Below, in pieces: positions 42,831 to 64,000 of a stretch of DNA of 64,000 nt. The stretch comes from an uncultured Actinomycetota bacterium (GTDB lineage Bacteria > Actinomycetota > Actinomycetes > Actinomycetales > Dermatophilaceae), in the NCBI GenBank assembly GCA_963747405.1, contig CAVVFG010000011.1:5018-69017 (forward strand), written 5' to 3'. The translations under genes were made by a program, and so were the position numbers. Every line of letters begins with the position of its first letter. Within the stretch, counting starts at the first letter, position 1. The notes below the pieces were generated by a model that ran no database searches, was not told where the DNA came from, and worked only from the letters and a program-made list of their open reading frames with translations.

Positions 42831-42925
42831 CCCGGCGCCAGCAGATGCGCGCGGGGGTGACGTCGGGTTTGCTATGCCGAGACATCGGTGGTCGGCGGAG
42901 GGGTCCGGCCACAGGAGGGGGAGAC

Positions 42926-45953: not shown

Positions 45954-45970
45954 CCAGGAAGGACCGACCG

Positions 45971-46180
45971 ATGTCGATCATCCGCACCCTGCCCCTGCGA
46001 GCGCACCTGCTCGCCGACCGCCAGCTCGCCAGGGCCGCCCGACGCGCCGAGCGGGGTGACGTGCCCGGCTGGGTGCTCATCACCTTGATGACGGCCGGGC
46101 TCGTCACCGCCTTGTGGGTCGTCGCGAAGGGCCAGCTCGTCGCCATGTTCCAAAGCGCCCTGTCGTCGGTGAAGGGCTGA
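45971..46180 (+). CDS. flp: Flp-like major pilin
   Basis: 69 aa. ERG|DVPGWVLITLMTAGLV cleavage/hydrophobic pattern, located after tadC. Confidence 0.75.
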   Translation: MSIIRTLPLRAHLLADRQLARAARRAERGDVPGWVLITLMTAGLVTALWVVAKGQLVAMFQSALSSVKG

Positions 46181-46189
46181 TCCCGCCCG

Positions 46190-46573
46190 ATGCGGTGGGC
46201 GCGGGACGAGCGGGGCGCAGCCGTCGCGGACTTCACGATGGTGTCCGTGCTGGTCGTCGCGGTGTTCCTCGCCGTCTTCCAGCTCGGGCTCGCGCTGCAC
46301 ACCCGCAACACGCTCATCTCCTGTGCCTCCGAGGGGGCACGGCTGGGAGCACGGGCGGATGCCGTTGCGGGGCAGGGTGTGTCACGTACCCAGTCCCTGA
46401 TCAGTGCGTCGCTCTCGTCGCGCTACGCGCGCCAGGTCAGCAGCCGCCAGACGGTCGTCGAGGGCGTGCGGGTCATCGAGGTCCGAGTGGTCGCCCCCGT
46501 CCCGGTGATCGGGCTGCTCGGGCCGGAGGACCGGCTCGACGTGGTCGGGCGGGCCTTCTTGGAGGCGCAGTGA
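46190..46573 (+). CDS. tadE: TadE-like minor pilin
   Basis: DERGAAVADFTMVS...ASEGARLGA. Confidence 0.85.
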   Translation: MRWARDERGAAVADFTMVSVLVVAVFLAVFQLGLALHTRNTLISCASEGARLGARADAVAGQGVSRTQSLISASLSSRYARQVSSRQTVVEGVRVIEVRVVAPVPVIGLLGPEDRLDVVGRAFLEAQ

Positions 46574-47016
46574 CCCGGCCCCGGCCCGCGCCGCTCGACG
46601 AGGGTGGCAGCGCCGTCGTCGAGTTCGTCGTGCTCGGCGTGCTGTTGCTCATCCCCCTCGTCTACCTCGTCCTGACGCTGGCGCGGGTGCAGGCCGGGTC
46701 GTATGCCGTCAGCCAGGCGGCGCGCGAGGCGGGCCGTGCCTTCGTCACCGCCGAGACGGACGGCAATGCGACGGCCCGAGCACAGGCCGCCGCACGACTC
46801 GCCTTCGCCGACCACGCGTTCGAGGACTCCGGCCGCGTGACCATCGCCTGTGACGCAACCCCGTGCCTTCGCCCGGACGGCCGGGTCGTCACCGCCGCGA
46901 CGGTTCGCGTGCCGTTGCCGCTGGTGCCGTCCTTCGTCCGCCACGTCATCCCGATGGCGGTGCCGGTGAGCGCGAGCCACCTGTCGACGGTCGACCGGTT
47001 CCGAGGGCTCGGGTGA
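46570..47016 (+). CDS. TadE/TadF-like minor pilin
   Basis: DEGGSAVVEFVVLG...QAAREAGRA. Confidence 0.82.
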   Translation: MTRPRPAPLDEGGSAVVEFVVLGVLLLIPLVYLVLTLARVQAGSYAVSQAAREAGRAFVTAETDGNATARAQAAARLAFADHAFEDSGRVTIACDATPCLRPDGRVVTAATVRVPLPLVPSFVRHVIPMAVPVSASHLSTVDRFRGLG

Positions 47017-47486
47017 CCAGCCGCAGCGGCGAGCGTGGCCGCTCGAGGCAGGACGAGACCGGCTCGATCAGCCTGTTCATCCTCGGGCTGTCACTGGTCG
47101 CGATGCTGCTCATCGCCGGGGCCGTGGCCGTCACCTCCGCGCACCTGTCACGCATGCGGTTGCTCGACGTCGCCGACGGTGCCGCGCTGAGCGCGGCGAA
47201 CGCCCTCGACGACGCGGCCTACGCGCAGGGCGTGGGGGAGTCGGTGCCGCTGAGCAACGCCTCGGTGCAGGAGCGCGCAGCCGCCTACCTCGGTGCCCGT
47301 CCCCGACCGGGCAGCATCTCGCGGTGGCGGCTCGCGCCGGGCACCGGTACCCCTGACGGCCGGACCGCGGTGGTCGTGGTCGTCGGCGAGGCGCAGCTTC
47401 CGATGGTCGGCACGGCGCTGCGTGAGCTGGGGGTCAGCCTGACGATCCGCGTCGAGTCCAGGGCACGTTCCGACCTCGCCGGCTGA
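47013..47486 (+). CDS. TadG-like minor pilin
   Basis: DETGSISLFILG...LLDVADGAALSAA. Confidence 0.8.
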   Translation: MTSRSGERGRSRQDETGSISLFILGLSLVAMLLIAGAVAVTSAHLSRMRLLDVADGAALSAANALDDAAYAQGVGESVPLSNASVQERAAAYLGARPRPGSISRWRLAPGTGTPDGRTAVVVVVGEAQLPMVGTALRELGVSLTIRVESRARSDLAG

Positions 47487-47516: not shown

Positions 47517-48184
47517 TCAGCCGGTCACGACCTCCGGCGCCTCCGCATGAGCGCGCACCAGCGCCACCACGAGCCGGTCGGCGGCGTCGTTGGCGCGGGC
47601 CAGCATCCGGGTGGTGGCCGGCGTGGCCAGGGCATGCCGGCAGGCCAGCTCGCCGAGCACGTCGAGCAGCAGGCTGCAGCAGCGCTGGAACGCCGCCACG
47701 CTCTCGCCGAGGTTCCCGCTTCGGCGGCGCGCGAGCCTGCCGTGCATCGCCGCCGCCTGCAGGGCCGGGGCCAGCGCGGCCTCACGTTCCCGTCGGGTGC
47801 TGCCGTCGACGTAGCCCAGCACCCCGTCGACCAGGGTCCGGCCACCGAGAGCGAGCACGGCGTGGGTCTGCTCGTCGGCCCCGTCGAGCCACGAGACGTC
47901 CGGGCACGCGGCGGAGATGCTGGCGCGCAGGATGTCGACCACCGTGTCCGTCGAGCCACCCAGGGCGGCGATCGACGGCTCGGTGCTCGCGGCATCGGGC
48001 AGCAGGTGCTCGAGCGTCGAGCGGGCGTAGCGGCGGTGACCGCCCGGGGTCGTGAAGGTGACGATCTTCCCGGCCACGCTCCATCGCCGCAGCGTCGCCG
48101 GGGAGACCCCGAGCATGGCGCTCGCCTCGTTGACCCCGAGCCAGACCTCACGGTCCTCGGCAAAGGGGTGCGGACCGGTGACCA

Positions 48185-48185
<1 letters not shown>
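47517..48185 (-). CDS. BldC/MerR-like HTH regulator with C-terminal all-helical domain
   Basis: WLGVNEASAMLGVSPATLRRW...GKI...TPGGHRRY. TGATG-coupled to the decaheme gene. Confidence 0.85.
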
Positions 48186-49977
<1,792 letters not shown>

Positions 49978-49981
<4 letters not shown>

Positions 49982-50763
49982 GGCGTCATCACCCTCTCGA
50001 CCGAACCGGTGATGCTGTCCGTGGACACCCCGCCCTGGCGGATCTCGCGCAGGACTCCGTCGCGGTCGACGAAGAAGTGCGCCGGGATGGCGGACACGCG
50101 GTAGGCGTCCGCGATGGCGGACTGCTCGTCGGCACCGACCGGATAGGTGGTGCCCACCCGCGAGGCATAGCTGCGCACGGCATCCTGGCCCTCGTTGATG
50201 TTCACCCCGAGCACCACCAGACCGTCCTTGCCGTACTTCTCGTAGGCGGCCTGCACGTCGGCAACCTCCGCCTGGCAGGCGGCGCACCAGCTGGCCCCGA
50301 AGACCAGCCACACCGGCTTGCCGCGGTACTGGTCCAGGGTCACCTTCGTGCCGTCGACGGTGGTCAGCGTGAAGTCCTGCGCCGCCGCGCCCACCTTGGG
50401 CGCGGGCACGGTCGACTGGCCGGGCAGGGCGACGACCGTGGTGCCGGACGCGTTCGCGGCATCGGTTCGTCGGCCGTTGATGACCCAGGCACCGCCCGCG
50501 ACGAGCGCCGCGGTCACGAGGAGGACGGCCAGCGTGCCGAACCGGCTCGAGCGGATCCGCTCGCGCAGGTCGCGTCGTCCGGCCGCCCCGTCACCGGCCG
50601 ACCCGACCCGCTGCCGCGCACCGGCCCCGGGCTCGGGCTCGGCGAGCACGTCCACCCCCTCGACGTGCTCCACCGCGACCGGCGCGGCCCGGGCCGTGCG
50701 CACCGGCGAGGCGGGGGCAGGGTCGGCGAGGAGGCCGTCGTCGAACAGGTCGTCGTCGTCCAT
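49978..50763 (-). CDS. resA: TlpA/ResA thiol-disulfide oxidoreductase
   Basis: TM anchor, WLVFGASWCAAC, AIPAHFFVDRDG. Confidence 0.9.
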
Positions 50764-50819
50764 GGGTGGTGCGCTTCCCTTCAGGTGTGGGTCTGCCCTG
50801 CTGCCGGTGTGCGGGTCGA

Positions 50820-51752
50820 TCAGGTGTAGCTGTGCAGCCCGCCGAAGAAGGCGTTGCCGACGAAGGTCAGCACGACGCTCGCGAAGCCGATGACGAGCAG
50901 CCAGGCGGCGCGGCGGCCGGTCCAGCCGCGGGCGACGCGGGCGTGCAGGAAGCCGCCGTAGATCAGCCAGGTGACGAGCGAGGCGGTCTCCTTGGGGTCC
51001 CAGCTCCAGTAGCTGCCCCAGGCGATCTCGGCCCAGACGGCGCCGAGCACGAGCACCATGGTGTCGAGCGGGAAGCCGATGACGACGGCGCGGTAGCCGA
51101 GCCGGTCGAGCACCTCGTCCTTGGGCACCAGGTGCTTCCAGCGCTGCGGGGTCCACAGCGTGAGGGCGGCTGCTGCGAAGGAGATCGCGAAGGCGCCGTA
51201 GGCGAAGATCGCCACGATGATGTGGATGGTGAGCAGCAGGCTGTTCTGCAGGGCCGGCACCAGCGGGTCGACCTGGGTGTTCTGGGCGCCGGCGTAGAGC
51301 AGGGCGAGCACCGTCATCGGGAGGATGAACAGGGCCAGCGTGCGGGCGTGGTAGCGCCACTCGAAGTAGCAGTAGGCGGCGAGCATGCCCCAGGCCAGCG
51401 ACGTCGCGAACTCGTACTGGGTGACGAACGGGCCGTGGCCGGTGGCCGCCATCCGCAGGCCGAGGGCCGCCGTGAGGAAGCCGAGGGCGATCCAGGTCAG
51501 GCGCGTCCCGTAGCGGGCCAGGGTCGTCGCCGACACGGCGGTGTCCCGGGCCACGATGTCCTGCTGCGCGGCTGCGGAGACCGAGTCGACGTCGTCGAAC
51601 AGGTCCTCACCGGATGCCGTGACGAGCACCTTTCGCCGCGAGGCGCCGGCGGCCGCCCGGTGACCCGCGCTCATGGCCCACGCGTAGGCGATGGTCGCGA
51701 GGACCGTGGAGATCAGTGCCGCGACGAACGCGAACTGGGAGTAGGTGATCAT
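50820..51752 (-). CDS. ccsA: Cytochrome c synthase CcsA (ResC)
   Basis: WWD domain WAEIAWGSYWSWDPKET; His ligands in GHGPF, TIHII and FLHAR. Confidence 0.95.
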   Translation of the reverse strand: MITYSQFAFVAALISTVLATIAYAWAMSAGHRAAAGASRRKVLVTASGEDLFDDVDSVSAAAQQDIVARDTAVSATTLARYGTRLTWIALGFLTAALGLRMAATGHGPFVTQYEFATSLAWGMLAAYCYFEWRYHARTLALFILPMTVLALLYAGAQNTQVDPLVPALQNSLLLTIHIIVAIFAYGAFAISFAAAALTLWTPQRWKHLVPKDEVLDRLGYRAVVIGFPLDTMVLVLGAVWAEIAWGSYWSWDPKETASLVTWLIYGGFLHARVARGWTGRRAAWLLVIGFASVVLTFVGNAFFGGLHSYT

Positions 51753-51757
51753 GCCTG

Positions 51758-53269
51758 TCACTCCTTCGAGGGCTGGCCGACAGGGGCGTCAGGCCGTGTG
51801 ATGGTGGACACCAGGTCCGAGAACACCGGCTCGAAGCCGGGGTCACGCTTGAGGGGGGCGCCGAGCCGCACGCTGGCGGTGCCGTCGGCGGTGTCGCGTA
51901 CCCGCACCCACAGGCGGCGGTGCGGCATGAAGAACACCAGGTAGCAGCCCAGGATCAGCAGCGCCGCACCCAGGCCCACGACCCACGAGCCGCTGTCCTG
52001 CTTGACGGTCAGCCCGGTGTACTGGCGGTTGCGCTCGTAGGTGTAGGTGAGACCGTCGACGACGGCGGACTGACCCTGGCTGACCACCGGCGTGCCGAGG
52101 GGGGTGTCGACCCCGTCCTTGTGCACCTCGAGCTGCGCCGAGCCGGCGGGCAGGTCGGCCAGCACCTGGCCGGACGCGGCCTCGACGACGTAGACGGTGA
52201 TGCCGCGGTCGGGGATGGTCAGCTGCCCGATGCTCTGCTGCCCGTCGTCGGACTGCCACTGCAGCGGGACCAGCCCGGAGTAGACCTTGGTGTCGCCGTC
52301 GCTGACGGTGACGTCGGCGCCGTTGCCGAAGGACGACTGGTGGAACCACGTGCCGTCGTAGATGAGCGGCGAGTTCACCCGGGTCTCGTGGCGCGCGACC
52401 TGCTTGCCGTCCTGGGTCAGCACCAGGTCGGACACGTAGTCCTTGGGGGCCCCGTTGTCGTAGTAGGAGTCGGTGAAGCTCTTGGCCTCCACCGTCAGGC
52501 CGGTGCCGTGGCCCACGCTGACCGGCACGCCGACCGGCGCGATGAAGCTCTTGTCGCGAAAGCCCGTGCTGGCGCTGACGACGAAGCCGAGCATGACGAC
52601 GATGAGGCTGAGGTGGGCGATGACGGTGCCGAAGGGGCCCCAGCGGAAGCGGTCGGCGTACAGCGCTGTGCCGGTGGCGGCCTGGGCGTCGATGATGCGG
52701 AAGTGCTTGGCGCGCAGGGCTGCCCGCACGTGCTCGGTTGCCGCTGCGCTGTCCATGGGCAGGTCGACGGTGGCCCGCAGCGGCGCGTGGTCGTAGAAGA
52801 CCTCGCTCATCGTGGTGCGTGGCTTGGTCGCCACTCGCCACAGCCGGGGGGCCCGGTTGACCGAGCAGGCCAGGATGCTCAGGCTCAGCAGGGCGAACAG
52901 GCCCATGAAGTACCAGGTCGAGAAGACGTGGAACAGGCCGAGCTTGTCGAGGATGCCGGCCCACCCGCCGTAGCGCTGGGTCGGCGTGCCGGCGAGCCAC
53001 TGCTGGTACGCGGCCGGGTCGGCCCGCACCTCCGGCTCCACCTGCATGAGCAGGGTGCCGAGGAGGGTCAGCACGCCGAGGGTGAGGATGATCCACAGCC
53101 CGGTGCGCATCGAGATGAGGAAGAGCCAGATCTTGCGCAGCGGGTGGGCGTGGTGGTGGCCGTGGCCGTCCTGCTCACTCCCGTCCAGGACGTCGACGCC
53201 GTGCTCGTGGTCGACGTGTCCGGGCACGTGCGAGGTGATGTCCTCGCGGCCCCTCACGGTGGTCGTCAT
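51758..53269 (-). CDS. resB: Cytochrome c biogenesis protein ResB/CcsB
   Basis: FLISMRTGL, VFSTWYF, GTVIAHLSL, VNSPLIYDG..FHQSSF, YTGLTVKQDSG. His-rich N-tail. Confidence 0.92.
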   Translation of the reverse strand: MTTTVRGREDITSHVPGHVDHEHGVDVLDGSEQDGHGHHHAHPLRKIWLFLISMRTGLWIILTLGVLTLLGTLLMQVEPEVRADPAAYQQWLAGTPTQRYGGWAGILDKLGLFHVFSTWYFMGLFALLSLSILACSVNRAPRLWRVATKPRTTMSEVFYDHAPLRATVDLPMDSAAATEHVRAALRAKHFRIIDAQAATGTALYADRFRWGPFGTVIAHLSLIVVMLGFVVSASTGFRDKSFIAPVGVPVSVGHGTGLTVEAKSFTDSYYDNGAPKDYVSDLVLTQDGKQVARHETRVNSPLIYDGTWFHQSSFGNGADVTVSDGDTKVYSGLVPLQWQSDDGQQSIGQLTIPDRGITVYVVEAASGQVLADLPAGSAQLEVHKDGVDTPLGTPVVSQGQSAVVDGLTYTYERNRQYTGLTVKQDSGSWVVGLGAALLILGCYLVFFMPHRRLWVRVRDTADGTASVRLGAPLKRDPGFEPVFSDLVSTITRPDAPVGQPSKE

Positions 53270-53282
53270 CGCGATGCCTCTT

Positions 53283-54026
53283 TCAGACGGGGATGGTCGG
53301 GAAGAACTGGGAGAGCCGCATGAGCAGGTTCGTGATCATCAGGAAGCCGACGGCGACGAGCATGGAGCCGGTGGCCAGGGAGACGACGGCGTCGTGCCGG
53401 GCGAACCAGCTGAGGCGCTGGCGCAGGCTGTCCGCGCCGAGTGCCACGAGGATGAAGGGGATGCCGAGCCCGAGCGCGTAGGCGAGGAGCAGCACCGTCC
53501 CCTGGGCGAGGTCCGAGCGCAGCGACGCCAGGCCGATGATCCCGCTGAGGATCGGGCCGATGCAAGGCGTCCACCCGGCCGCGAACACCACCCCGAACAG
53601 CGCCGAGCGGCCCACGCGCGGCGCCTGCTCGATCACGGTGCCGTCGGCGTGGCGCTGCACGAGCCGGCCCATGTTGGCCCCGGCGCCGGCCTGGCGACCC
53701 AGGACCGGGAGCGAGATCAGGCCCGCGACGTGCAGGCCCATCACCACCAGGATGGCGCCGCCGACCTGGCGCAGCAGGCCGACGTGGTCGCGCAGCGCGT
53801 AGCCGACCAGCCCGATGGAGGCCCACAGCGCCACGAACACGACGGTGAAGCCGATGACGAAGGCCAGGGCCTGCCGGAAGGCGACACTGCGGGTGGGCCG
53901 GCCCGTGTCGTTGGTGCCGCCGACGATGAAACCGACGTAGACCGGCACCAGCGGCAGGCAGCACGGCGACGCGAACGACACCAGACCCGCGGCGAAGGCC
54001 ACCGCCAGGGTGATGTTCCCGTTCAT
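53283..54026 (-). CDS. ccdA: Cytochrome c biogenesis protein CcdA
   Basis: SFASPCCLPLVP and GWTPCIGPIL redox cysteine motifs. Confidence 0.94.
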   Translation of the reverse strand: MNGNITLAVAFAAGLVSFASPCCLPLVPVYVGFIVGGTNDTGRPTRSVAFRQALAFVIGFTVVFVALWASIGLVGYALRDHVGLLRQVGGAILVVMGLHVAGLISLPVLGRQAGAGANMGRLVQRHADGTVIEQAPRVGRSALFGVVFAAGWTPCIGPILSGIIGLASLRSDLAQGTVLLLAYALGLGIPFILVALGADSLRQRLSWFARHDAVVSLATGSMLVAVGFLMITNLLMRLSQFFPTIPV

Positions 54027-54065
54027 GTCAGCCGCGCTTCCTGTCGTGGTGGTGGGGGGTCGAGG

Positions 54066-54955
54066 TCACTTGGCGGGCGTCGGCGCTGAGCTGGAGACGG
54101 ACCCGACCTGGGACTGCACGGTCTTGGCGAGCTCGCTGTTCGGGTCGATCGCCACGACCTTGGCCCACTCGGTCTTCATCTCCGCGTTGCGGCCGGTCGT
54201 CATGTAGAGGAAGCCCAGGTCGTAGTGCATCTCGGCGTTCTTCGGGTAGGCCTTGATGCCGGTCTTCCAGGCCTGCTCCGCGGCGGCGGTGTCGCCACCG
54301 TTGTAGGAGGCGGCCCCGAGGCTGATCAGGCCCTGCTCGTTCTTGGGGTCGACGGCCAGCACCTTCTGGGCAGAGGCCTTGGCGCTGGTCCAGTCGTTGG
54401 CGGTGAAGTACAGGTCGGTGATCTTCTGCAGCGACGCGACGTCCTTCGGGTCGGCCTTGACCTTCGCGGTCAGCGCGGCCAGCTGGGCCTGGTCGATCGT
54501 GGGCGCCGCGCTGGGGGCGGCGGCCGAGCTGGCGGTGGCGGCGGAGGTGACGTCCGGCACGGTGGGGCGGCCCATCCAGTAGACGCCGAACACGACTGCG
54601 ACCGTCGCGAGGACGGCGATGATGCCGATCAGGACGCGGTTGGTCGAGCCGCCCGCCGGCGCGGGGGCCGGTGCCACGACGGTGGCCGGAGCCGCCGCTC
54701 GGGAGGGGGGACGAGCTGGGACTCGGGACCTGTCAGCAGGGAGAAGATGCGGTCCGCCTCCTGCTGGCGGCGGTCCGCCCATCCGCGGATCTCGCTGGGC
54801 GCCTGGTCGAGGAAGTCACCGATCCGGTCGTACGTCGTCTCGACCTCCTGGTCGTCCGCGGCGGCGTCGAGCCCGAACCGGGCAAGCAGTCCGTCTCTCG
54901 TCACGACCGCGTCGGACGTGGTTCCCGTGGCGGTCGCTTCCCGTACTGGGGACAT
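54066..54955 (-). pseudogene. Membrane-anchored TPR protein (CycH/NrfG-like) split by a 1-nt deletion (may be an assembly error)
   Basis: The 5' part (ATG 54955, GAGGAG RBS) and the TM+TPR part are in different frames. Adding one base to the G6 run at 54705-54710 gives a continuous 891-nt ORF. Confidence 0.7.
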
Positions 54956-55034
54956 GGGGTTCGCTCCTCGATCATCGGCAGTGGTCGGTGTTCCTGGGTG
55001 CCGATTTCAGTATCGTTTTGAGCGATTTGCGGAA

Positions 55035-55065
55035 CTATCCGCCTAGGGGCACATATCCGATAGAG
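55035..55065. promoter_or_regulatory. Island operator-like motif, copy A
   Basis: CTATCCGCCTAGGGGCACATATCCGATAGAG, 24/31 identical to 61352-61382. Lies 80 nt upstream of the maturation operon start. Confidence 0.6.
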
Positions 55066-57740
55066 GTGACCGGGGCGGGGGTGCTGTACGTCGCCTGCTG
55101 GTGGTCCTTGCCGTGGCACGTGAGGGTGCACGAGGCGCCGGTCGCCGTCTTGGTGAAGGTGGGCACCCCGCCCATCGACCGGCTCGGCAGGACGTTCGGG
55201 CCGAAGACGACCAGGCGGTCGCCGGACAGCTTCTGGGTGGTCGGCGGCTTCGTCGTGCCGTGGTCGTCGAAGTGGCACTCCGCGCAGCGGGCGTTGCCCT
55301 GCCCGGCCCCGGGGGTGTCGATGTCGAGCCCGCCGCTGCCGGCGTCGGAGATCCCGGACGTGTGCAGGCCGTGGAACACGAAGTTCGTGCCCTCCGCCGC
55401 CGCGGGGCGCCGCTGGTTCATGAAGGGCGTCTCCATGTGGCAGGTGAGGCACAGCGCGAAGCCCGCGTTGTCGTAGAACCGCCCGGATGCCGAGAGCACG
55501 CGGTTCTCGTAGGGGCGAGTGAGGATTCCGCGGTTGGTGGAGGCGTGCACGGTGCTGGTGGCGTCGGGCGCGTTGCGGGCAGGGTCGGTCGACGTGCCGG
55601 TGGTGTTGCTCGAGTGGCAGCTGACGCAGCGCACGGTGTCGCCGGTGCTGAAGTTCCACAGCTTGTAGGGGGAGGTACCGGCGAGGCTGTCCGCCAGCTT
55701 CTGCGTCTGGTTCTTCCCGGGGGCCTCGATCGGGTGGTATGAGGCGTTCGCCGGGTTGAGCGCCACGGCGAGGTCGGTGGCGCTCTGCGACGGCTTGCCG
55801 GGCACGTCCGCCGGCTGAGAGGTGAAGCCGGAGTGGCACTTGAAGCAGAGCTGGTACTCCGCGGTGACCGGTGCGACGGTGCCGTCCAGCCAGGTGTAGC
55901 CGGGGGCTGTCCCGGCCGCCCCGTTGGTGACCGCGACGCCGGAGACGTTGACCAGTGAGCCCGGGGGCGTCCAGCCCGTGGCGGTCATGGTCGGGGGCGT
56001 GTCGGTCGAGCCGTGCGGGTTGTGGCAGTCGCTGCACTGGCTGTGCCGGTCGAGCCGGCCCTCGAACTCGTTCTCGGCGTCGAGCGTGTGGCCGGTGGCG
56101 TCCGCCGTGTCGTGCGACCAGTACGAGCGCGTCGTGGGGTCGTTCGCGGGCTGGCCGAGGGTGTACTGCGCCTTCACGTCAGCGGCATCGCCGACTGCGC
56201 CGCCCGCGTGGCAGGCGTAGCACTGCTCGGTGATCGACGGCGCCTTGACCAGCGCACCGGCCTTCGCCGTGTGTGCCTGGTGGCACACGCTGCACTGTCC
56301 GCTCGTCGTCGAGGAGTAGGGGTCGTGGATCGTCGCGGGACCGTTCGGCCCGACCGGTCCGACCGTCACGACGTACGACGGGCCGGCGGTGGCGACCTCG
56401 GTCAGCATGGCCTGCGCCGTGGTGTCGGGCACGAAGGCGGCAGCCATCGTGGCGACGAGGTCGGTGGCCGCAGCGGCAGCGGCCGGCGCGGCATCCGCGA
56501 CGTCGGTGGTGCTCGTGCTCGTGAGGTTTGCGGTGACGGGGACGGTGGTGCCGCCCCTCGCGGGCTGCGAGACCAGGCGGTAGGCGGGCGGCGCAGAGCC
56601 GGCCGCGGTGGTGGCGCGGGCCGGGGCGCTGCCGCTGGGGGATCCCTGCTTCTGACCCGGGCTCTGGAGCACCGGCGGTGGGTCGGCGACCGTCACGCTC
56701 ACCGTGTCCGCTCCGGGGATCGCGGCGCCGCCGTCGGTGACCCTCAGGTCGTAGGTCGCGCCGTACGGCGCGTCGATCGAGAAGGCAGCGGTGAACTCCT
56801 GCTCGGTCACGGTGCCGGCCAGCACGGTGTACCGGGGCGCGGCCTGGACCCCACTGAGCCGGTGTCCCTCGGCCTGGGCCGCCCCGTCGGGCGCGGCGAG
56901 CCGCGCCTCGTCGGGCGTGGTGGTGGTGTTCTCGGGTGCGGTTCGGGTGCCGCCGTTGGCCTTCACCCACTCCTCCGCCGCGTGCAACGGGATGGCGGGC
57001 ACCGCCTCGTCGGGCACCACCTGGAAGGTGTTCGCGCCGGCTACCCGGTACTCGAGCCGGGGCGCCACTGCCACGTCGCCGGGGCCGCCGTTGCCGAGCT
57101 GCAGCACGATGCGGAAGGTCTGGAAGGGGAGCAGGCCGGTGAGGGGCTGTCCGGCAGGCAGGTAGGTCGGCGTGGTGCCTGGAGCACCGAGGGTGGCCAG
57201 CGCCGCCGGCCCGCCGAACAGCCCTGGTGTGATGCTGGCCGGTGCGCTGGACGGCGTCGGTGACGGCGTGGGAGCCGGTGCTGCCGCCGAGGCGGAGGGC
57301 GCCGGGACAGGGCTCGCGGCCGACGGAGTGGACGAGGGTGTGGGGAGCGGGGACGGGGTGCTGCTGCCGTCGGCGGTGGCGCCCGGGGCCGGTGTGGGGG
57401 CCGGCGTCGGTACGGGGGTGGTCTGGATGCCGGCGCTGCCCGGGGTGGGGGTCGCGCTGCTCGACGGTGTGGTCACGTCGGTGACGGCGACCCGCTGGAC
57501 CGCGGCCTGCTGGGTGGCGGCCCGCTGGGTGGCGGCCCGCCGCGCCGCGGAAGCGCTCGCCGTGCGGGGGGTGGACGTGGGGGCTGCCACGGTCGGTGCC
57601 GGGCCGGCCGACTGCAGGCCCACGGTCTGCACGACGGCGATGGTCGACGCGGTGAGGAGCACCGCGGCGGCGGCGAGGACGTGGGCCGGCCGGACGTCGA
57701 ACCGCGCGGTGCGCGGTGTCCTGCGGCGCTCCTGCGTCAT
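55035..57740 (-). CDS. Stalked octaheme cytochrome c (7 CxxCH + 1 CxxxCH)
   Basis: N-terminal signal/TM, P/T/S/A-rich linker and beta-rich domain, then CSVCH, CYACH, CSDCH, CFKCH, CVSCH, CLTCH, CAECH, CTLTCH. Confidence 0.88.
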   Translation of the reverse strand: MTQERRRTPRTARFDVRPAHVLAAAAVLLTASTIAVVQTVGLQSAGPAPTVAAPTSTPRTASASAARRAATQRAATQQAAVQRVAVTDVTTPSSSATPTPGSAGIQTTPVPTPAPTPAPGATADGSSTPSPLPTPSSTPSAASPVPAPSASAAAPAPTPSPTPSSAPASITPGLFGGPAALATLGAPGTTPTYLPAGQPLTGLLPFQTFRIVLQLGNGGPGDVAVAPRLEYRVAGANTFQVVPDEAVPAIPLHAAEEWVKANGGTRTAPENTTTTPDEARLAAPDGAAQAEGHRLSGVQAAPRYTVLAGTVTEQEFTAAFSIDAPYGATYDLRVTDGGAAIPGADTVSVTVADPPPVLQSPGQKQGSPSGSAPARATTAAGSAPPAYRLVSQPARGGTTVPVTANLTSTSTTDVADAAPAAAAAATDLVATMAAAFVPDTTAQAMLTEVATAGPSYVVTVGPVGPNGPATIHDPYSSTTSGQCSVCHQAHTAKAGALVKAPSITEQCYACHAGGAVGDAADVKAQYTLGQPANDPTTRSYWSHDTADATGHTLDAENEFEGRLDRHSQCSDCHNPHGSTDTPPTMTATGWTPPGSLVNVSGVAVTNGAAGTAPGYTWLDGTVAPVTAEYQLCFKCHSGFTSQPADVPGKPSQSATDLAVALNPANASYHPIEAPGKNQTQKLADSLAGTSPYKLWNFSTGDTVRCVSCHSSNTTGTSTDPARNAPDATSTVHASTNRGILTRPYENRVLSASGRFYDNAGFALCLTCHMETPFMNQRRPAAAEGTNFVFHGLHTSGISDAGSGGLDIDTPGAGQGNARCAECHFDDHGTTKPPTTQKLSGDRLVVFGPNVLPSRSMGGVPTFTKTATGASCTLTCHGKDHQQATYSTPAPVTSIGYVPLGG

Positions 57741-57785
57741 CGTCGGTGCTCCAGTCGCTCGTCGTTCGTTCGTCGTCCGGAGCCA

Positions 57786-57812
57786 CAGGCGGCCTGGGTG
57801 AGAGGCCGCCTG
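57786..57812 (-). terminator. Perfect 10-bp stem-loop between the hexaheme and octaheme genes
   Basis: CAGGCGGCCT (57786-57795), 7-nt loop, AGGCCGCCTG (57803-57812). No U-tract. Confidence 0.55.
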
Positions 57813-57853
57813 CAGCTCACAGACGGGTCTGGCTCGGTGTGGTGTCCGCCGGG

Positions 57854-59044
57854 TCAGACGTTGTGGCACATCACGCAGGTACCGCGGTCGTCCACACGGA
57901 GCAGACGGCTGTCGGAGCTGGTGCCGGTGCCGTTGGGCCACTCGACCTTCGAGTTCGGCATCTGGGCGTTCGTGCCGTGTGCTACGTGGCACTGGATGCA
58001 GTTGCGGTTTGCCGAGGCGTCGCCGCTGACCTGGTCGCCGGTGTGCCGGTACGAGAAGACGGCGTCACCGGAGTTCTTGCCCCACGACCCGGACGGTGCC
58101 AGGTACCGCGTGTGGCACGTGGTGCACCACGCGGCGACATTCGCCTGGAACGAGCTGACGGTCGCGGAGATCGTCTTCTGAACCGGGGTCGGGTCGGTGG
58201 TGGAGGTTCCTCCGAGGATGGTCGTCGTGCCCGTGTCGGCCACGGCGTTGGGGTCGCCGGCGATCCAGTAGTTGGTCGTCGTGTAGACCTTGTTCGCCGT
58301 GTCCTTGATGACGATCCCGGGCGTGGTGTTGCCCGGAAGGGTCGCCGTGAACCCCGAGTCGGACGGCACAGCCCGCAGGATGCGGTACTGCCCGTTGCCG
58401 TGCGGGTCGTGGCAGGCCGTGCACTCGAGCTTGGTGTTCGTCGTCGTGCTCATGTCCTTGCCGGCGTTCGCCGTGCCGGAGATGGGCCCGTTGCCCCACA
58501 TGATGCCCACGCCACCGAGGTGGTTGGACGTCGTGTCCTGCGGGGTGGCGGCGGGTGGGACCAGCTGGTTGCGGGACCGGTAGTTCGTACCGCTGAGGTA
58601 GATCTCCTTGGTCGCCGTACCCGTCCCGAGTGCTGCCTTCTCGAAGCCGCCACCCCGCAGGGCGCCGGCCACTGTGGTGCCACGGTCGACGGTCAGGGTG
58701 GTTCCGTCGGGGTACGTCGTCGTCGATGCGGCGTCGTAACCCAACCCACTCTGTACGTCGGTCGTTGCACCGGTTCCACCGTCACCGTGGCACGAGTAGC
58801 ACAGGCTTTCCTCGCTCGTGGCGTTGAGCAGGTAAGCCGCGCGAGCCGTGTGGGCCCGGTGGCACGAGGCGCAACGCCCCTGGCCGGCATCGGTGATCTT
58901 GACACCGCTGGTCGGCGTGTTCGTGGCGGTGGACACGTGTGGGCCGTTGTCGGCGTAGGCCGGCACCGCCCCGAGGAAGAACGCGGCCGCGGCCGTCGCG
59001 CCAAGCGCTACCAGCCTCGTCCGTACCTTCTTGTGCGTTCTCAT
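57854..59044 (-). CDS. Secreted hexaheme cytochrome c, OmcS/CwcA-like (putative nanowire subunit)
   Basis: Sec signal ending AYA|D; CASCHRAH, CYSCH, LECTACHDPH-YRIL, WCTTCH, CIQCHVAH, terminal CVMCHNV. Confidence 0.85.
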   Translation of the reverse strand: MRTHKKVRTRLVALGATAAAAFFLGAVPAYADNGPHVSTATNTPTSGVKITDAGQGRCASCHRAHTARAAYLLNATSEESLCYSCHGDGGTGATTDVQSGLGYDAASTTTYPDGTTLTVDRGTTVAGALRGGGFEKAALGTGTATKEIYLSGTNYRSRNQLVPPAATPQDTTSNHLGGVGIMWGNGPISGTANAGKDMSTTTNTKLECTACHDPHGNGQYRILRAVPSDSGFTATLPGNTTPGIVIKDTANKVYTTTNYWIAGDPNAVADTGTTTILGGTSTTDPTPVQKTISATVSSFQANVAAWCTTCHTRYLAPSGSWGKNSGDAVFSYRHTGDQVSGDASANRNCIQCHVAHGTNAQMPNSKVEWPNGTGTSSDSRLLRVDDRGTCVMCHNV

Positions 59045-59089
59045 TGTCGCGTTCCAATCTGAGCTGTGAAGTTGTGTACTCCTGTTGTT

Positions 59090-59145
59090 GTGCGGTGAAT
59101 TTCCTTGCGGTGAACCCGAACGGCTGGTTCGGCGACCAGGTCGCC
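59090..59145 (-). promoter_or_regulatory. Structured/repeated leader upstream of the hexaheme gene
   Basis: TGCGGTGAA twice (59091, 59106), CCGAAC/GTTCGG hairpin, GGCGACC-A-GGTCGCC palindrome (59131-59145). Confidence 0.35.
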
Positions 59146-59187
59146 GCACCTCCGTCAGGCCACTTCTGTGGGACCGGGAACCAGTCA

Positions 59188-60261
59188 TCAGTACCCCCAC
59201 ACCTCGATGCGGTTGTTCTCCCGGTCGGCGACGTAGACGCGACCACGGGTGTCCGCGGCAACGCCGTTGGGGAAGGTGAACTTGCCGTCGTCGTGCCCCT
59301 CGTCGCCGAAGGAGGCGACGTAGCCGGGGTGGTCCGTCGGCGAGGAGCCGAGCGTGAACAGCCGCACCATGTGGTCGGTGGTGTCGGCCACGAACATCCG
59401 GCCCTGGTCGTCGACCGCGAGGCCGCGGGGCAGGCCCAGGTCGCCGTCGCCGACGCCACGGGCGATGAGGGTCGACACCGTGCCGGCCCGGTCGATGGAG
59501 ACGACGCGACCGTTGTTGCTGTCGCTGACGTAGATGCCGCCGTCCGGCCTGACGACGATGGCGTTGGGGTAGTTGAGCTCGCCCTTGCCGAGCACGCTGC
59601 GCAGCGTGCCGTCGTGGGCGAACACCAGGATCCGGTGGTCGGCGGGCTTGGCGCTGAGCACGTCGGCGACGTAGACGGTGCCGTCGGGGCCGACCGCCAG
59701 GCCCAGGGGCGAGATGGTGCCGACGCCCTTGCCCTTCGGCTGGAAGGTGGAGAGGTAGGTGCCGGTCTCGTCGTAGACGTACACCTTGCCGGCTGCGCGG
59801 TCGCCGACGTAGACGTCGGCGTTGGTGGGGTCGACCGCGACGTAGACGGGCACGTGCAGCGTCTTGGGTGTGGCCGGGGGCAGCAGCTCGCCGACCTTGA
59901 CGCCGTCGCGGTCGAAGATGAACGTCGTCGGGGTGGCGCCGGACTGCGTCGCGTAGATCCGCTCCCCGTCGGGCGAGACGGCGACGCCGAGCGGGCGGAC
60001 GACGTCGTAGACCGACGTCTTGTAGGTGGGGGCGTGCGCGTCGCTGAGCCCGGGCAGCTCGGTGAGCGGCTTGCGGTTCAGCAGGTACCAGGTGAACAGG
60101 CCCACGAGGAGCACGAGCAGGGCGAACACGACGGCGAGGATGATGCGGCGGCGCTTGCGGCGGCCCTCGTCGACGGGCGGCACCGGGGCCGGCGGGGTGG
60201 GGGGCTCGGAGAGGTCGTCGAGCAGGTCGAGCAGGTCGGTGCTGGACTGGGTCTCACTCAT
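59188..60261 (-). CDS. Membrane-anchored NHL-repeat beta-propeller protein
   Basis: TM after RRKRRR; repeats PLGVAVSPDG, PVYVAVD, PLGLAVGPDG, PNAIVV, PRGLAVD, PNGVAAD. Confidence 0.9.
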   Translation of the reverse strand: MSETQSSTDLLDLLDDLSEPPTPPAPVPPVDEGRRKRRRIILAVVFALLVLLVGLFTWYLLNRKPLTELPGLSDAHAPTYKTSVYDVVRPLGVAVSPDGERIYATQSGATPTTFIFDRDGVKVGELLPPATPKTLHVPVYVAVDPTNADVYVGDRAAGKVYVYDETGTYLSTFQPKGKGVGTISPLGLAVGPDGTVYVADVLSAKPADHRILVFAHDGTLRSVLGKGELNYPNAIVVRPDGGIYVSDSNNGRVVSIDRAGTVSTLIARGVGDGDLGLPRGLAVDDQGRMFVADTTDHMVRLFTLGSSPTDHPGYVASFGDEGHDDGKFTFPNGVAADTRGRVYVADRENNRIEVWGY

Positions 60262-60273
60262 CGCAGGTCACCC

Positions 60274-61254
60274 TCACTTCTTCTTCGCCGTGGCCGGTGG
60301 TGCGAGGGGCTTGACGCCGATGGCTGCCAGCGCGCTGATGGCGGCGATGTTCTTGGGGTCCTTGGCCAGCGCCTTCTGGTACCAGGTGCCGGCGGCCTTG
60401 GTGTCGTGGCCGGTCTCGGCGATGAGTCCGAGCCCGAGCATCGCGTCGGCGGCGGCGGGGCCTGCGGTGAGAGCGGTGAGCTGGGTGCGGGCCTGGTCGA
60501 CCTTTCCGCTGCAGAAGCCGCCCATCGCCGAGGAGTAGCTCGCGAGCTCGGGCTTCTTCAGCGCGGCGTAGGCGGCCTGCATCTGCTGGTAGGGCTCGCA
60601 CCAGCCGGTCGGCACGAAGCGCAGGGCGTCGCGGAAGGTCGCGACCGCCTCGGCGTTCGCGCCCTTCTGCATCTGGGCCAGGCCCACCTGGTACATGGCG
60701 TCGGAGTCGGTCGGCTCGATCTTCAGCGCGTGGCCGAGCTGGCCGAGTGCGACGTCCGACTTGTTCTGCTTCACCGCGATGCTGCCCAGGTAGTAGTACG
60801 CCGCAGCGAGCTGGGAGTCGGCGCCGGCGAACTCACCCTTGCGGGTGGCCGTGACGATCTGGGTGAGGGATGCGGTGGCCTGGTCGAGCTGGCCCTTCGT
60901 CATCAGGGCGAAGCCCTTGCCGAGCAGCGCGTCCTTGTTGCCGGGGGCGGCCTTGAGCACCTGGTCGAACTGCTTGACCGCGTCGTCGTAGCGCGCGGCC
61001 TGCTCGTACACCTCGCCCAGCTGGAGCCGGGCCTGCAGGTCGTCGGGGTTCTTGCGCACTGCTGCCTCGGTGAGCGCGACCTGCCGCTCGACGATGGAGG
61101 GCGCGGCGGTCACGTGCTGGTCCTTGTAGTACAGGAGCCCGAAGGCGACCAGCCCGACGGCGAGGGCCGCGGCCCCGATACGCAGGAGCACGGCCATCGT
61201 GCGGTCGGACGGATCCGCCGCCGTGAGCCGGTGGGGGCTCATCGTGTGTGCCAT
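60274..61254 (-). CDS. Membrane-anchored TPR protein
   Basis: N-terminal TM; TPR signatures (ARLQLGEVYEQAARYDDA, ALLGKGFAL, AMYQVGLAQ). GAGGT RBS. Confidence 0.88.
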   Translation of the reverse strand: MAHTMSPHRLTAADPSDRTMAVLLRIGAAALAVGLVAFGLLYYKDQHVTAAPSIVERQVALTEAAVRKNPDDLQARLQLGEVYEQAARYDDAVKQFDQVLKAAPGNKDALLGKGFALMTKGQLDQATASLTQIVTATRKGEFAGADSQLAAAYYYLGSIAVKQNKSDVALGQLGHALKIEPTDSDAMYQVGLAQMQKGANAEAVATFRDALRFVPTGWCEPYQQMQAAYAALKKPELASYSSAMGGFCSGKVDQARTQLTALTAGPAAADAMLGLGLIAETGHDTKAAGTWYQKALAKDPKNIAAISALAAIGVKPLAPPATAKKK

Positions 61255-61351
61255 AGGTACCTCACCCGTTCCTTTGGCGGTGTGGCGGCATCCCTGCCGT
61301 CGGAGGACGGACCTCCTCCACGTCCATCGTGGGTGGGCGGGCCGGTGAGGC

Positions 61352-61382
61352 CTATCCGCCGCAGGGTAGATATCGGGTAGAG
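61352..61382. promoter_or_regulatory. Island operator-like motif, copy B
   Basis: CTATCCGCCGCAGGGTAGATATCGGGTAGAG in the divergent gap between the TPR gene and the kinase gene. Confidence 0.6.
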
Positions 61383-61562
61383 CCCTGGCCGCGACCCCCT
61401 CGCCGGGCACACCGGCTCGACGGGCGGGCGCGACATCGGCACCACTACACTGCGTCGTGGACAGCGCCCGGAAGGCGCCGGCAAAGGAGCGGACCGATCA
61501 ACACCAGTGGAGTGACCGGCTCGGGAGGCGCCGAGAGCGCGCACTCCCGCTCTGCCGCCACC

Positions 61563-63356
61563 ATGGCGGAGCGCCCTGGCCCCGATCCGGTCGTCGGTCC
61601 CGCTCCGCGTACCCGGCTGGTCGACCGCCGGCTGTGGGCGATCGGCATCCTGGTTCCCGTCGGGTTCGCGATCGGGCTCGAGCTGGTCCGCTGGCAGCTC
61701 GAGCAGCAGGGCGTCTGGTCGCCGGGCGTCTTCGAGATCTGGCACATCGCCGGCCTGGCCGTGGTCGTGGTCGGCATCGTGCTGTTCGCGTTGTTCATGT
61801 TCCGGCTCATCGACCAGATCGACCGGCAGGTCGTCCGCCAGAACCGCGACCTCACCGCGGCGAACGCCGTGGCGGGGGCCATCCAGGGCCAGGCGACGGT
61901 GCCGGCCATCGTCGACAGTGCCCTGACCTCGCTGCTGCGCACCTCGGGGGCCCGCCAGGCCCGCATCCGCTTCCCGGAGCCGGTCGGGTTGCCCGACAGG
62001 GACACCCACGCCCGCACGCTCACCGTTTCCGGCGCCCGGGTCGACACCGGCAGCCCCTCGCTCGAGGTGCCCATGGCACACGGTTCTGGCGTCGTCGGAC
62101 GGCTGGCTCTGTGGTACCCGGCGGGTGCCGATGTCGCCGACCGCATCGGCGGCGCCGCGCTGTCCAGCCTGACCACCCAGATCGCATGCGCCATCCAGCT
62201 GGCCGGCGCAGTGGGCGACCTGGAACGGCGCAAGCTGGAAGGACACGCCTTCTACGACATCCTCCTGCGCGTCTCGAACCAGGAGCCGACCACGCCGGTG
62301 CTCGAGGCGGTCGTTCGACATGCGGCTGCACTGCTCGGTGCGGATGCCGCCGTCGTCACGGTGTCGCCGGAGACGACCCGCACGATCCGGTTCGATTCGG
62401 GGTCGGGGGCACAGGCGCCGGCGCAGCGGCCCGACGGCGCCACCGTCGTGTCCTTCGGGCTGCCCGTCGCGCCGCCGCCGGGCGGCGGCCAGGCCACGGC
62501 CGCCGCCGACGACCGCGAGTGGGCGCACACCGCGAGCCGCGACGTCACCGGCGGGGCCGGCCACCTCGGCGAGCTGTGGGTGGCCCGCACCACTGGGGCC
62601 GAGTTCACCGACCGCGACCGCGGTTTCCTCGGCACCCTGGCGAGCCTGGCCGGCATCGCGCTGTCCGGGGCCCAGATGCGCGAGGGCGCGCGGCAGCGCG
62701 CCGTGCTCAGCGAGCGCACCCGGATCGCGCGTGAGATGCACGACAGCCTGGCCCAGGTGCTCGGGGCAGTGCACCTGCGGCTGCGGGCCCTCGAGACCGG
62801 CGTCGGAACCCTGACCGACGACGCGGTGGTGGCCGAGGTGGAGGCGCTCGCGGACGTGTGCGCCGAGGCCTACCGCGATGTGCGCGAGACCATCCTCGGG
62901 CTGCGTGACGCAAACCGGCACGCCGAACGCAGCCTCGAGGACAACCTGCGGTCCTACCTCGAGGCCTACTCCACCCAGAGCGGCATCGGCGCCCGGCTGG
63001 ACAACGAGGTCGGCCACGAGGTGGCGCTCTCGCCGAGGGCCGAGGTGCACATCATCCGGATCGTCCAGGAGGCGCTGACCAACGTGCGCAAGCACGCGGG
63101 CGCCCGCTCGGTGGTCGTCAGCATCCGCGGCGACGACACCACGACGTGCTTCGTCGTCGCCGACGACGGCGTCGGCTTCGACACCGAGGCGACGGCCGGC
63201 TCGCAGGACGGCTACGGCCTGTTCACCATGCGCGACCGGGCGGCACTGCTGGGCGGTACGGTGCAGGTCCACTCCGCACCCGGGGCCGGAACCACCGTGA
63301 CGGCCAGCGTGCCCGAGCGGCCCCATCCCTCCTTCACCACGAGGCCCACCGGATGA
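61563..63356 (+). CDS. Sensor histidine kinase (2 TM, GAF-like domains, HisKA_3, HATPase)
   Basis: ERTRIAREMHDSLAQ, RIVQEALTNVRKHA, DDGVGF, GYGLFTMRDRA. Confidence 0.92.
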   Translation: MAERPGPDPVVGPAPRTRLVDRRLWAIGILVPVGFAIGLELVRWQLEQQGVWSPGVFEIWHIAGLAVVVVGIVLFALFMFRLIDQIDRQVVRQNRDLTAANAVAGAIQGQATVPAIVDSALTSLLRTSGARQARIRFPEPVGLPDRDTHARTLTVSGARVDTGSPSLEVPMAHGSGVVGRLALWYPAGADVADRIGGAALSSLTTQIACAIQLAGAVGDLERRKLEGHAFYDILLRVSNQEPTTPVLEAVVRHAAALLGADAAVVTVSPETTRTIRFDSGSGAQAPAQRPDGATVVSFGLPVAPPPGGGQATAAADDREWAHTASRDVTGGAGHLGELWVARTTGAEFTDRDRGFLGTLASLAGIALSGAQMREGARQRAVLSERTRIAREMHDSLAQVLGAVHLRLRALETGVGTLTDDAVVAEVEALADVCAEAYRDVRETILGLRDANRHAERSLEDNLRSYLEAYSTQSGIGARLDNEVGHEVALSPRAEVHIIRIVQEALTNVRKHAGARSVVVSIRGDDTTTCFVVADDGVGFDTEATAGSQDGYGLFTMRDRAALLGGTVQVHSAPGAGTTVTASVPERPHPSFTTRPTG

Positions 63357-64000
63357 GCGAGCCGATCCGCATCCTGCTCGTCGACGACCAGCCGCTCTTT
63401 CGTGGTGCGATCGCCGCGCTGCTCGCCAGCCAGCCCGACATGGAGGTGGTCGGCGAGGCCGAGAACGGCCTCCTCGGGGTCGAGAAGGCCCGCGAGCTGC
63501 ATCCCGACCTCGTCATCCTCGACGTCGACATGCCGGTGATGAACGGCGTCGAGGCGGTGCGGCTGATCCGCGAGCAGGTGATGGACGTCAAGGTCATCAT
63601 GCTGACCGTCTCCGACGTCGAGGACCACGTCATGGACGCCCTGCGCCACGGGGCGCACGGCTACCTGCTCAAGGACCTGCGCCCCGAGCAGCTGCACGAC
63701 ATGATCCGCTCGGTCATGCGCAACGAGACGCCCATCTCACCGGCCGTCGCCGGCCGGCTGCTCCGCGAGATCCGCGACGGCGGCGCGAAGAAGGTCACCT
63801 CACCGTCCCCGGAGCAGGCCCGGTCAGTGGTGACGCCGCGCGAGCTGGAGATCCTCCGGCTGGTGGCCGTGGGGATGAGCAACAAGGAGATCGCCAAGCG
63901 GCTCGTCATCACCGAGGGCACGGTCAAGAACCACGTGCACAACGCCCTCGAGAAGCTGCACCTCGACAACCGGATCCAGGCTGCCGCGTACGTGATCCGG
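63353..64000 (+). CDS. NarL/LuxR response regulator, 3'-truncated by window edge
   Basis: IRILLVDDQ, DLVILDVDMP, GAHGYLLKD, TPRELEILRL...NKEIA...TVKNHVHN. ATGA-coupled to the kinase. Confidence 0.93.
   Translation, partial: MSEPIRILLVDDQPLFRGAIAALLASQPDMEVVGEAENGLLGVEKARELHPDLVILDVDMPVMNGVEAVRLIREQVMDVKVIMLTVSDVEDHVMDALRHGAHGYLLKDLRPEQLHDMIRSVMRNETPISPAVAGRLLREIRDGGAKKVTSPSPEQARSVVTPRELEILRLVAVGMSNKEIAKRLVITEGTVKNHVHNALEKLHLDNRIQAAAYVIR

Follow-up and report, generated by a model that had tools for sequence, protein, structure and literature searches.

Two copies of a 31-nt motif stand before the two leftward operons of a multiheme-cytochrome island in a 64,000-nt stretch of DNA from an uncultured member of the Dermatophilaceae (contig CAVVFG010000011.1; the whole stretch, with a G+C content of 72.5%, is called the window here), and comparison with orthologous islands confirmed, as far as sequence conservation can, that both are genuine occurrences of a regulatory DNA site whose conservation reaches from Actinomycetota to Chloroflexota. 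In the reading that we favour, with a probability of about 0.6, the 31-mer makes up the upstream half of a promoter module specific to this mobile island, and the island's own NarL-type response regulator (RR) binds it and activates both operons, one for the structural cytochromes and one for their maturation. The two copies were read directly from the sequence:

61352..61382, minus strand: copy B, upstream of the structural operon; gene-orientation sequence CTCTACCCGATATCTACCCTGCGGCGGATAG; weight-matrix score 41.9 bits
55035..55065, minus strand: copy A, upstream of the maturation operon; gene-orientation sequence CTCTATCGGATATGTGCCCCTAGGCGGATAG; weight-matrix score 38.7 bits

The initial annotation of the window had aligned these 31-mers (at 55035-55065 and 61352-61382 in + strand coordinates) without gaps at 24 of 31 positions, and this is exact. 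Each copy also contains the imperfect inverted repeat that had been described (6 of 7 matches in each), copy B carries GGGTAGA twice, 11 nt apart, and copy A overlaps the last codons of the octaheme cytochrome gene, whose open reading frame (ORF) ends at 55035 and whose stop codon (55035-55037) lies inside the motif. The distances to the start codons had been given as 80 and 98 nt; the gaps that we read are 79 nt for copy A (ATG at 54955) and 97 nt for copy B (ATG at 61254).

Conservation and anatomy of the 31-mer

The resemblance between the two copies exceeds what base composition produces: the closest pair of 31-mers from the two 200-nt upstream regions agrees at 24 positions, and 300 dinucleotide-preserving shuffles of these regions gave a mean of 18.8 and a maximum of 22. 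A weight matrix trained on the orthologous sites found exactly two matches in the 64-kb window, the two copies, with everything else below 5 bits, and in 200 Markov-simulated windows of 64 kb the best score averaged 2.1 bits and peaked at 14.7 bits.

The orthologous islands were collected by a homologue search with the hexaheme protein, which returned a graded family; a 16-member alignment of it led to 79 loci from species-representative genomes. When these were scanned by Hamming distance with both 31-mers in gene orientation, nearly every locus was matched one to four times, almost always on the strand of the cytochrome genes, and an iterated weight matrix gave 128 matches on the gene strand and 3 on the opposite strand. 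Over 1.93 Mb the matrix built from the orthologous islands recovered 266 sites (171 unique), nearly all on the cytochrome-gene strand and upstream of structural, maturation or single-cytochrome operons; 69 unique sites lie upstream of the TPR1 gene, the position of copy B, and 66 unique sites at the maturation position, that of copy A. The flanks of the motif carry no information content despite island proteins that are only about 40% identical between distant loci, which indicates that selection acts on the motif itself and that recent shared ancestry does not account for it. Among the carriers are Ornithinibacter, Intrasporangium and Dermatophilaceae, Propionibacteriales, Kineosporiaceae and Solirubrobacterales, further several classes of Chloroflexota and one metagenome-assembled genome (MAG) of the Deferrimicrobiaceae.

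A scan that does not depend on any protein, with the degenerate pattern CTSTAYCNNANAYNTRCCNNNCGRCGGATKG over a metagenome collection, returned at least 120 contigs; recognisable island genes lay beside the match in 115 of the 120 listed, the other listed contigs being disrupted by an insertion sequence, short, or variant islands. The same pattern had no match in 2.9 million viral contigs. The initial annotation had proposed a genuine cis-element common to the structural and maturation operons and had named two findings that would speak against it, lack of conservation in orthologous islands and widespread random occurrence; the motif is conserved in these islands and, among the contigs listed, nearly confined to them, and the proposal of a selectively maintained element stands.

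In gene orientation the consensus reads C-T-S-T-A-Y-C-c-g-A-w-A-Y-s-T-R-C-C-nnn-C-G-R-C-G-G-A-T-K-G. Within it, TSTAYC and YSTRCC are half-sites in direct orientation at a distance of 11 nt, and CGGAT is a third half-site in inverted orientation; the middle block (positions 10-18) is as conserved as the ends. The inverted repeat, which had been taken as the main symmetry, is present (positions 4-9 against 25-30: 3.56 of 6 matches, 1.54 at random, over the 171 unique sites), but family-wide the direct repeat at an offset of 11 nt (positions 2-8 against 13-19) is stronger and gives the strongest self-similarity of the motif, with 4.04 of 7 matches over the same sites against 2.0-3.1 at other offsets. 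Short half-sites that recur at helical-turn spacing, as found here, are what is expected of a site for an RR of the NarL/LuxR (GerE) family.

The sites fall into two subtypes, which are kept by operon position across phyla. Those of structural (TPR) operons have G3, C14 and A16 (CTGTACC...ATCTACC), and those of maturation operons C3, G14 and G16 (CTCTATC...ATGTGCC). The copies in the window match their classes at positions 14 and 16: copy B, with ATCTACC as its second repeat, is of the structural-operon subtype, and copy A, with ATGTGCC, of the maturation-operon subtype.

Promoter geometry and the NarL-type response regulator

Downstream of the motif the distance to one further element is fixed. 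An A at motif position 53 together with a T at position 57 occurs at 95 of 125 sites, compared with a background of 2.4%, and this is by its pattern the A(-11)/T(-7) signature of a sigma-70-type -10 hexamer, predicted at positions 52-57 (nAnnaT), 20 nt past the motif. In the window two such hexamers are predicted:

61326..61331, minus strand: CACGAT, predicted -10 element of the structural-operon promoter, from the A53/T57 pattern and direct reading
55009..55014, minus strand: GATACT, predicted -10 element of the maturation-operon promoter, at a spacing identical to that of copy B

From these we infer transcription starts near 61319-61323 for copy B and near 55002-55007 for copy A. With a canonical 17-nt spacer the -35 element would occupy motif positions 29-34, of which the conserved part is only T-K-G; copy B reads TAGGCC there. 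Scans around both copies found no sigma-70 consensus promoter and no terminator; the lack of a consensus promoter fits weak promoters, yet it is no positive evidence for them. The TPR ORF begins, with ATG or GTG, exactly 6 nt after the hexamer, at position 64, in at least 12 loci of Solirubrobacterales (among them L016, at 5829, L020, L021, L022, L023, L025, L027, L032, L034, L037 and L056), so that the start of the TPR gene is the predicted transcription start. This implies that the structural operon of the Solirubrobacterales would be transcribed into leaderless mRNAs, which are common in Actinobacteria. A search of public reads for mapping of transcription starts found the promoter region matched by DNA runs only.

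Because the -10 hexamer follows the motif at a fixed spacing, the 31-mer would extend from about -63 to -33. A motif that overlaps a weak -35 region, ahead of a fixed -10 element and with a poor -35 element, has the layout of an activator site at a class II-like sigma-70 promoter. The term operator, which had been applied to the motif, does not suit this geometry, since the site lies neither between nor after the promoter elements.

The candidate reader is encoded next to copy B:

61563..63356, plus strand: histidine kinase (HK) with transmembrane segments, a weak GAF match, HisKA_3 and HATPase (Pfam)
63353..64000, plus strand: NarL-family RR, receiver plus GerE helix-turn-helix (HTH), running off the end of the window (Pfam Response_reg and GerE)

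The best match of the RR in the PDB is E. coli NarL (1a04, E = 1.9e-46), and DevR (3c3w) was also matched; its best NCBIfam match is NarL at 201 bits, under the equivalog cutoff of 250 bits. The receiver residues DD, D and K are intact. NCBIfam matches the kinase in its NarQ/NarX-type transmitter region only. A cognate NarL-family RR is in this way encoded together with its presumed targets, and in nearly all islands the RR gene adjoins the first motif copy. The RR is also the most conserved protein of the island (56-98% identity, about 40% for the others), and its recognition helix, EGTVKNH[VI]HNALEKL, is common to nearly all motif-bearing loci from Actinomycetota to Chloroflexota; five loci (L034, L038, L042, L057 and L058) have single substitutions and three (L054, L060 and L063) the variant HNILEKL, and three loci that lack the motif (L065, L068 and L079) have clearly different recognition helices. 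Among the loci selected by their cytochrome genes, the tabulation of RR orthologue against motif reads 46/0/3/3, with the motif present in 46 of the 46 loci that have the orthologue, in a count that ignores kinship between loci. The initial annotation had named either the RR or the HTH protein of the island as the binder of the motif; adjacency, the shared helix and the 46 of 46 loci make the RR the best candidate reader of the 31-mer, and the HTH protein tracks another element, which is treated below.

NarL-family regulators bind repeated heptamer half-sites. The phosphorylated RR, encoded beside the island, would bind the half-sites of the 31-mer as an oligomer and recruit or stabilise RNA polymerase at the weak promoters in the manner of a class II activator, and the structural cytochrome operon (from copy B) and the maturation operon (from copy A) would be switched on together.

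Several observations weigh against this assignment. Three loci (L047, L059 and L062) combine weaker motifs with a sequenced flank of 6-8 kb in which no RR gene occurs, and the co-occurrence statistics of RR and motif ignore phylogeny. The layout of the half-sites is not the canonical 7-2-7 of NarL, and only one of the three base-contacting residues of NarL, K188 in NarL numbering, is kept in the RR. No clean covariation was found between variants of the RR helix and variants of the motif: the overlap between the helix HNILEKL and the motif variant CGATKCATG (L060, L063 and L047) is suggestive, but L054 breaks the pattern. Metatranscriptome contigs of relatives cover the hexaheme gene only, are divergent upstream of it and are uninformative on transcription starts. 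Finally, a site that overlaps the -35 region could fit repression equally.

Repression is the best placed of the alternatives, though we consider it unlikely: the same RR at the same site would occlude the -35 region and keep the island silent until a signal releases it. NarL-family regulators are known to repress as well as to activate, and the site does overlap the -35 position. However, the core promoters are weak (a -35 element with only T-K-G, a -10 element without the first T, no sigma-70 consensus), as is typical of activator-dependent promoters, and the site reaches upstream of the -35 region and not across the spacer, the -10 element or the transcription start.

It had also been suggested that the two-component system regulates itself through the motif. 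The kinase gene is divergent from copy B in the clade of the window, but this arrangement of the HK-RR pair is a minority among 82 islands, in 74 of which the pair is upstream and co-directional, and in 53 assessable loci no motif was found before the kinase gene, apart from one 17-bit match on the wrong strand; such autoregulation is therefore not a conserved feature of the islands.

Two minor observations concern the region behind the RR gene. In most islands it is followed by a stand-alone receiver-like gene of about 105 aa (3975-4379 in locus L001, corresponding to just past position 64000 of the window). In close relatives a third, weak copy of the motif (CAGTAYCGTTTGTGTGCCCATCGCCGGATGT, 5.1 bits only) lies just beyond the end of the window, with a TACCGT hexamer at -10 spacing and a small receiver-like gene downstream.

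The BldC-like protein and a second element in the spacer

The last gene of the maturation operon encodes the HTH protein, and a second conserved element lies between the predicted -35 and -10 elements behind copy A:

47517..48185, minus strand: HTH protein (222 aa) that joins a BldC-like winged HTH to a helical domain of sensor-globin-like (RsbRD_N) type (Pfam HTH_17/MerR)
55012..55029, minus strand: second element, tandem 9-mers CAAATCGCT and CAAAACGAT, inside the -35/-10 spacer of copy A, from the logo of 30 unique maturation-type promoters

The start codon (ATG) of the HTH gene and the stop codon of the NapC-like gene share bases (TGATG), a hint that the two may be translationally coupled. 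NCBIfam assigns the protein to HTH_BldC at 46 bits, under the cutoff of 77 bits. In alignment with BldC (6AMA, 6AMK) R30 and the wing motif GGHRRY are kept and K26 is replaced by A, and the AF2 model (pLDDT 86) finds BldC with Foldseek at a TM of 0.82-0.86 on the target and superposes on it at 1.1-2.4 A. The C-terminal helical domain resembles globin-coupled sensor domains (TM about 0.6 on the target, with weak E-values), and some homologues are annotated with Pfam RsbRD_N.

The second element has its core CAAATCGCTCAAA at 55017-55029; the logo is CAAATCGCT followed by CAAAwcGAy, within the 17-nt spacer of maturation-type promoters. It is present in 29 of 29 loci that encode the HTH protein and absent from six of six assessable loci without it, and there are no mixed cases; 'without' means here that at least 700 nt are sequenced beyond the NapC-like gene and contain no HTH gene, and the six loci represent about three lineages. 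BldC sites are 9-bp direct repeats of the form AATTXXXX(C) (PMC5859096), and the spacer element, a direct repeat of this type, is a candidate site of the BldC-like HTH protein. It is not a classical MerR operator, the spacer being 17 nt and not 19-20 bp and the repeat direct and not a dyad, and the model of the protein has a globin-like domain and no MerR-type coiled coil.

That this HTH protein, in place of the RR, binds the 31-mer itself, as head-to-tail multimers on the 11-nt direct repeats, we regard as improbable. The idea draws on the BldC-like character of its HTH domain, on the binding of direct repeats by BldC as head-to-tail multimers (PMC5859096), on the presence of direct repeats within the 31-mer, and on L059, where the HTH gene stands in a motif-driven operon and no RR gene was found in the flank. 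Yet the six loci without the HTH gene (L013, L042, L058, L076, L083 and L098) keep the 31-mer at up to 42 bits (36 and 42 bits in L013), the HTH protein co-occurs perfectly with the spacer repeats instead, and the 9-nt period of these and their A/T-rich-plus-C pattern fit BldC better than the GC-rich 11-nt repeats do. Since the loci without the HTH gene keep the 31-mer and lose the spacer element, the simplest assignment would have the RR read the 31-mer at every promoter and leave the spacer repeats of the maturation promoter to the HTH protein.

With the RR as reader of the 31-mer, we tentatively envisage a portable two-tier circuit that moved across phyla with the island, in which the RR would act on the 31-mer of every promoter and the HTH protein on the 9-mers in the spacer of its own operon, as a feedback or checkpoint sensor that matches maturation capacity to apocytochrome synthesis. 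The signal of this second tier is perhaps heme, oxygen or redox state. If so, the BldC family would gain in this protein its first sensor-coupled member to which a site and a regulon are assigned.

Two further explanations do without either protein. The 31-mer might be the promoter of an extracytoplasmic function (ECF)-type sigma factor, with CTSTAYC as -35 and CGGATKG as -10 element about 17 nt apart; the distance between the best-conserved blocks (positions 1-7 and 25-31) is indeed in the range of promoter spacers, but the island has no sigma or anti-sigma gene by Pfam and synteny, a conserved middle block (positions 10-18) is unusual for a spacer, and the A53/T57 hexamer 20 nt downstream and the start codons 6 nt beyond it would be left unexplained, so that we consider this very improbable. 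A transcribed RNA element (a leader, riboswitch or processing site) can practically be dismissed: although copy A would be transcribed by read-through, there being no terminator between it and the octaheme gene, Rfam gave no relevant match at E <= 1 (54000-62000, with a single irrelevant sub-threshold match), folding is no better than that of shuffled sequences (z = -0.07 and +0.97), conservation is at the sequence level with a fixed distance to the -10 hexamer, and in the leaderless loci the motif would lie outside the mRNA.

Comparison with known systems and the genes of the island

Among the closest characterised parallels is E. coli NarL/NarP, whose heptamers are TACYYMT, with high affinity in a 7-2-7 arrangement. 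The candidate reader of the 31-mer is likewise of the NarL family, the opening TACYY of the heptamer recurs in the half-sites TAYCC and TRCC, and several half-sites, direct and inverted, lie upstream of and overlapping the -35 region. The 31-mer differs in lacking a 7-2-7 pair: its two direct repeats are spaced at 11 nt, and the inverted repeat stands 21 nt from the first of them. The recognition helix is TVKNHVHNALEKL, as opposed to TVKVHVKHMLKKM in NarL; the sensor kinase has no NarX-type sensor match; and multiheme cytochromes with their maturation genes take the place of nitrate or nitrite genes as presumed targets. As the half-sites share only TAYCC, the 7-2-7 arrangement is lacking and the RR falls under the NarL equivalog cutoff, this is not a strict NarL regulon site. 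Mycobacterium DosR/DevR, likewise among the PDB matches, is also an actinobacterial NarL-family RR. It has several sites per promoter, the proximal one overlapping the -35 region of hypoxia genes, and activates a dedicated regulon. The DosR box, however, is a 20-bp palindrome, whereas the 31-mer is asymmetric and strictly oriented, as its 128 matches on one strand and 3 on the other indicate.

The pho boxes of PhoB, like other direct-repeat RR sites that take the place of the -35 element, are likewise 11-nt direct repeats immediately upstream of and overlapping a poor -35 element in activator-dependent sigma-70 promoters, but PhoB is an OmpR-family winged-helix protein and the regulator here has a GerE/LuxR-type HTH. 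In B. subtilis resABCDE a two-component system is likewise linked to System II genes of the ResA, ResB and ResC (CcsA) type; ResD, however, is an OmpR-family regulator with different boxes, whereas the RR is of the NarL family, and the regulon here extends to large multiheme cytochromes and, in lineages other than this one, to System I ccm genes. Like the sites of Streptomyces BldC, the spacer element repeats a 9-mer in tandem, with an A-rich tetrad and C as the ninth base, AAATCGCT(C) (PMC5859096), but BldC has 68 residues and no sensor domain, whereas the HTH protein here has a sensor-globin-like domain of about 150 residues.

An RR site in an activator-dependent promoter would be a known kind of element. 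Its length and information content, the cross-phylum constancy of both site and regulator, the operon-specific subtypes and the second, BldC-like element are unusual. The multiheme cytochrome clusters of Gram-positive soil and sediment bacteria are thought to perform extracellular electron transfer. Such clusters in Solirubrobacterales and in Gram-positive MAGs have been mentioned in passing (PMC6344600), and our literature search found no description of this motif, its regulators or the way in which the clusters are switched on. A long and specific site (about 40 bits) with a defined promoter geometry gives a direct handle on this regulation: it makes the regulon readable from any genome or metagenome, and here it already ties the structural cytochromes to maturation genes of System II or System I and, in one lineage, to genes of heme biosynthesis; it points to a candidate kinase and regulator pair whose signal can be sought; and it might provide an inducible promoter-regulator cassette for cultured relatives such as Intrasporangium. 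It would also exemplify a cis-element that, together with its regulator, stayed nearly constant as the island passed from phylum to phylum.

The gene order across the 79 genome loci is HK, RR, motif, TPR, NHL, hexaheme, octaheme, motif, TPR2, CcdA, ResB, CcsA, ResA, NapC-like and HTH. In the window the structural and maturation genes are on the minus strand, and HK and RR are divergent and to the right of copy B. The genes behind the two copies, by Pfam and, from CcdA onwards, also by NCBIfam, with the extent of both operons supported by synteny, are:

55035..61254, minus strand: structural operon
60274-61254, minus strand: TPR protein
59188-60261, minus strand: NHL beta-propeller protein
57854-59050, minus strand: hexaheme cytochrome
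55035 to about 57740, minus strand: octaheme cytochrome with MtrC domain
54066..54955, minus strand: first gene of the maturation operon, with an N-terminal domain, a transmembrane helix and a CcmH/CycH-like TPR domain (Pfam TPR)
48185..54026, minus strand: remaining maturation operon
53283-54026, minus strand: CcdA
51758-53269, minus strand: ResB
50820-51761, minus strand: CcsA
49978-50781, minus strand: TlpA/ResA-like redoxin
48185 to about 49990, minus strand: NapC/NrfH-like multiheme quinol dehydrogenase

The first maturation gene appears in the window as two overlapping ORFs in different frames (54629-54955 and 54066-54782), with a frameshift near 54700, and as a single continuous ORF in L001, L003, L004, L009, L015 and L017; the split is either a real frameshift or an assembly error.

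Most islands have the motif before maturation genes of the ResB/CcsA type (System II). In one lineage it precedes the System I genes ccmE-ccmA-ccmB...ccmF instead (L083 at 10370, L098 at 4910, L116 at 201, L164 at 175 and L199 at 384), and in L059 (1316-6195) a divergent copy stands before the gene of a PCYCGC-motif protein, the HTH gene and, further along that strand, hemA, hemC and hemB; the gene names in L059 were assigned by reading the translations alone, and no HK/RR pair was found in the 6.4 kb upstream. As the motif precedes System II, System I and hem operons, it tracks the function of making multiheme cytochromes and not particular homologous genes. The Solirubrobacterales have additional copies directly before the hexaheme gene.

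Four freshwater-sediment metatranscriptomes contain RNA contigs of close relatives (85-99% alike) that are confined to the hexaheme gene (window 57849-59075) and include none of its neighbours, which hints at a separate promoter or at a message that is far more stable or abundant. Next to the island, the region 42794-47486 includes a gene for a T2SSE/CpaF-like secretion ATPase (42794-44158, Pfam), followed by small ORFs with hydrophobic N-termini (e.g., 46190-46573) that on reading are TadE-like, and it may be a Tad/Flp pilus cluster.

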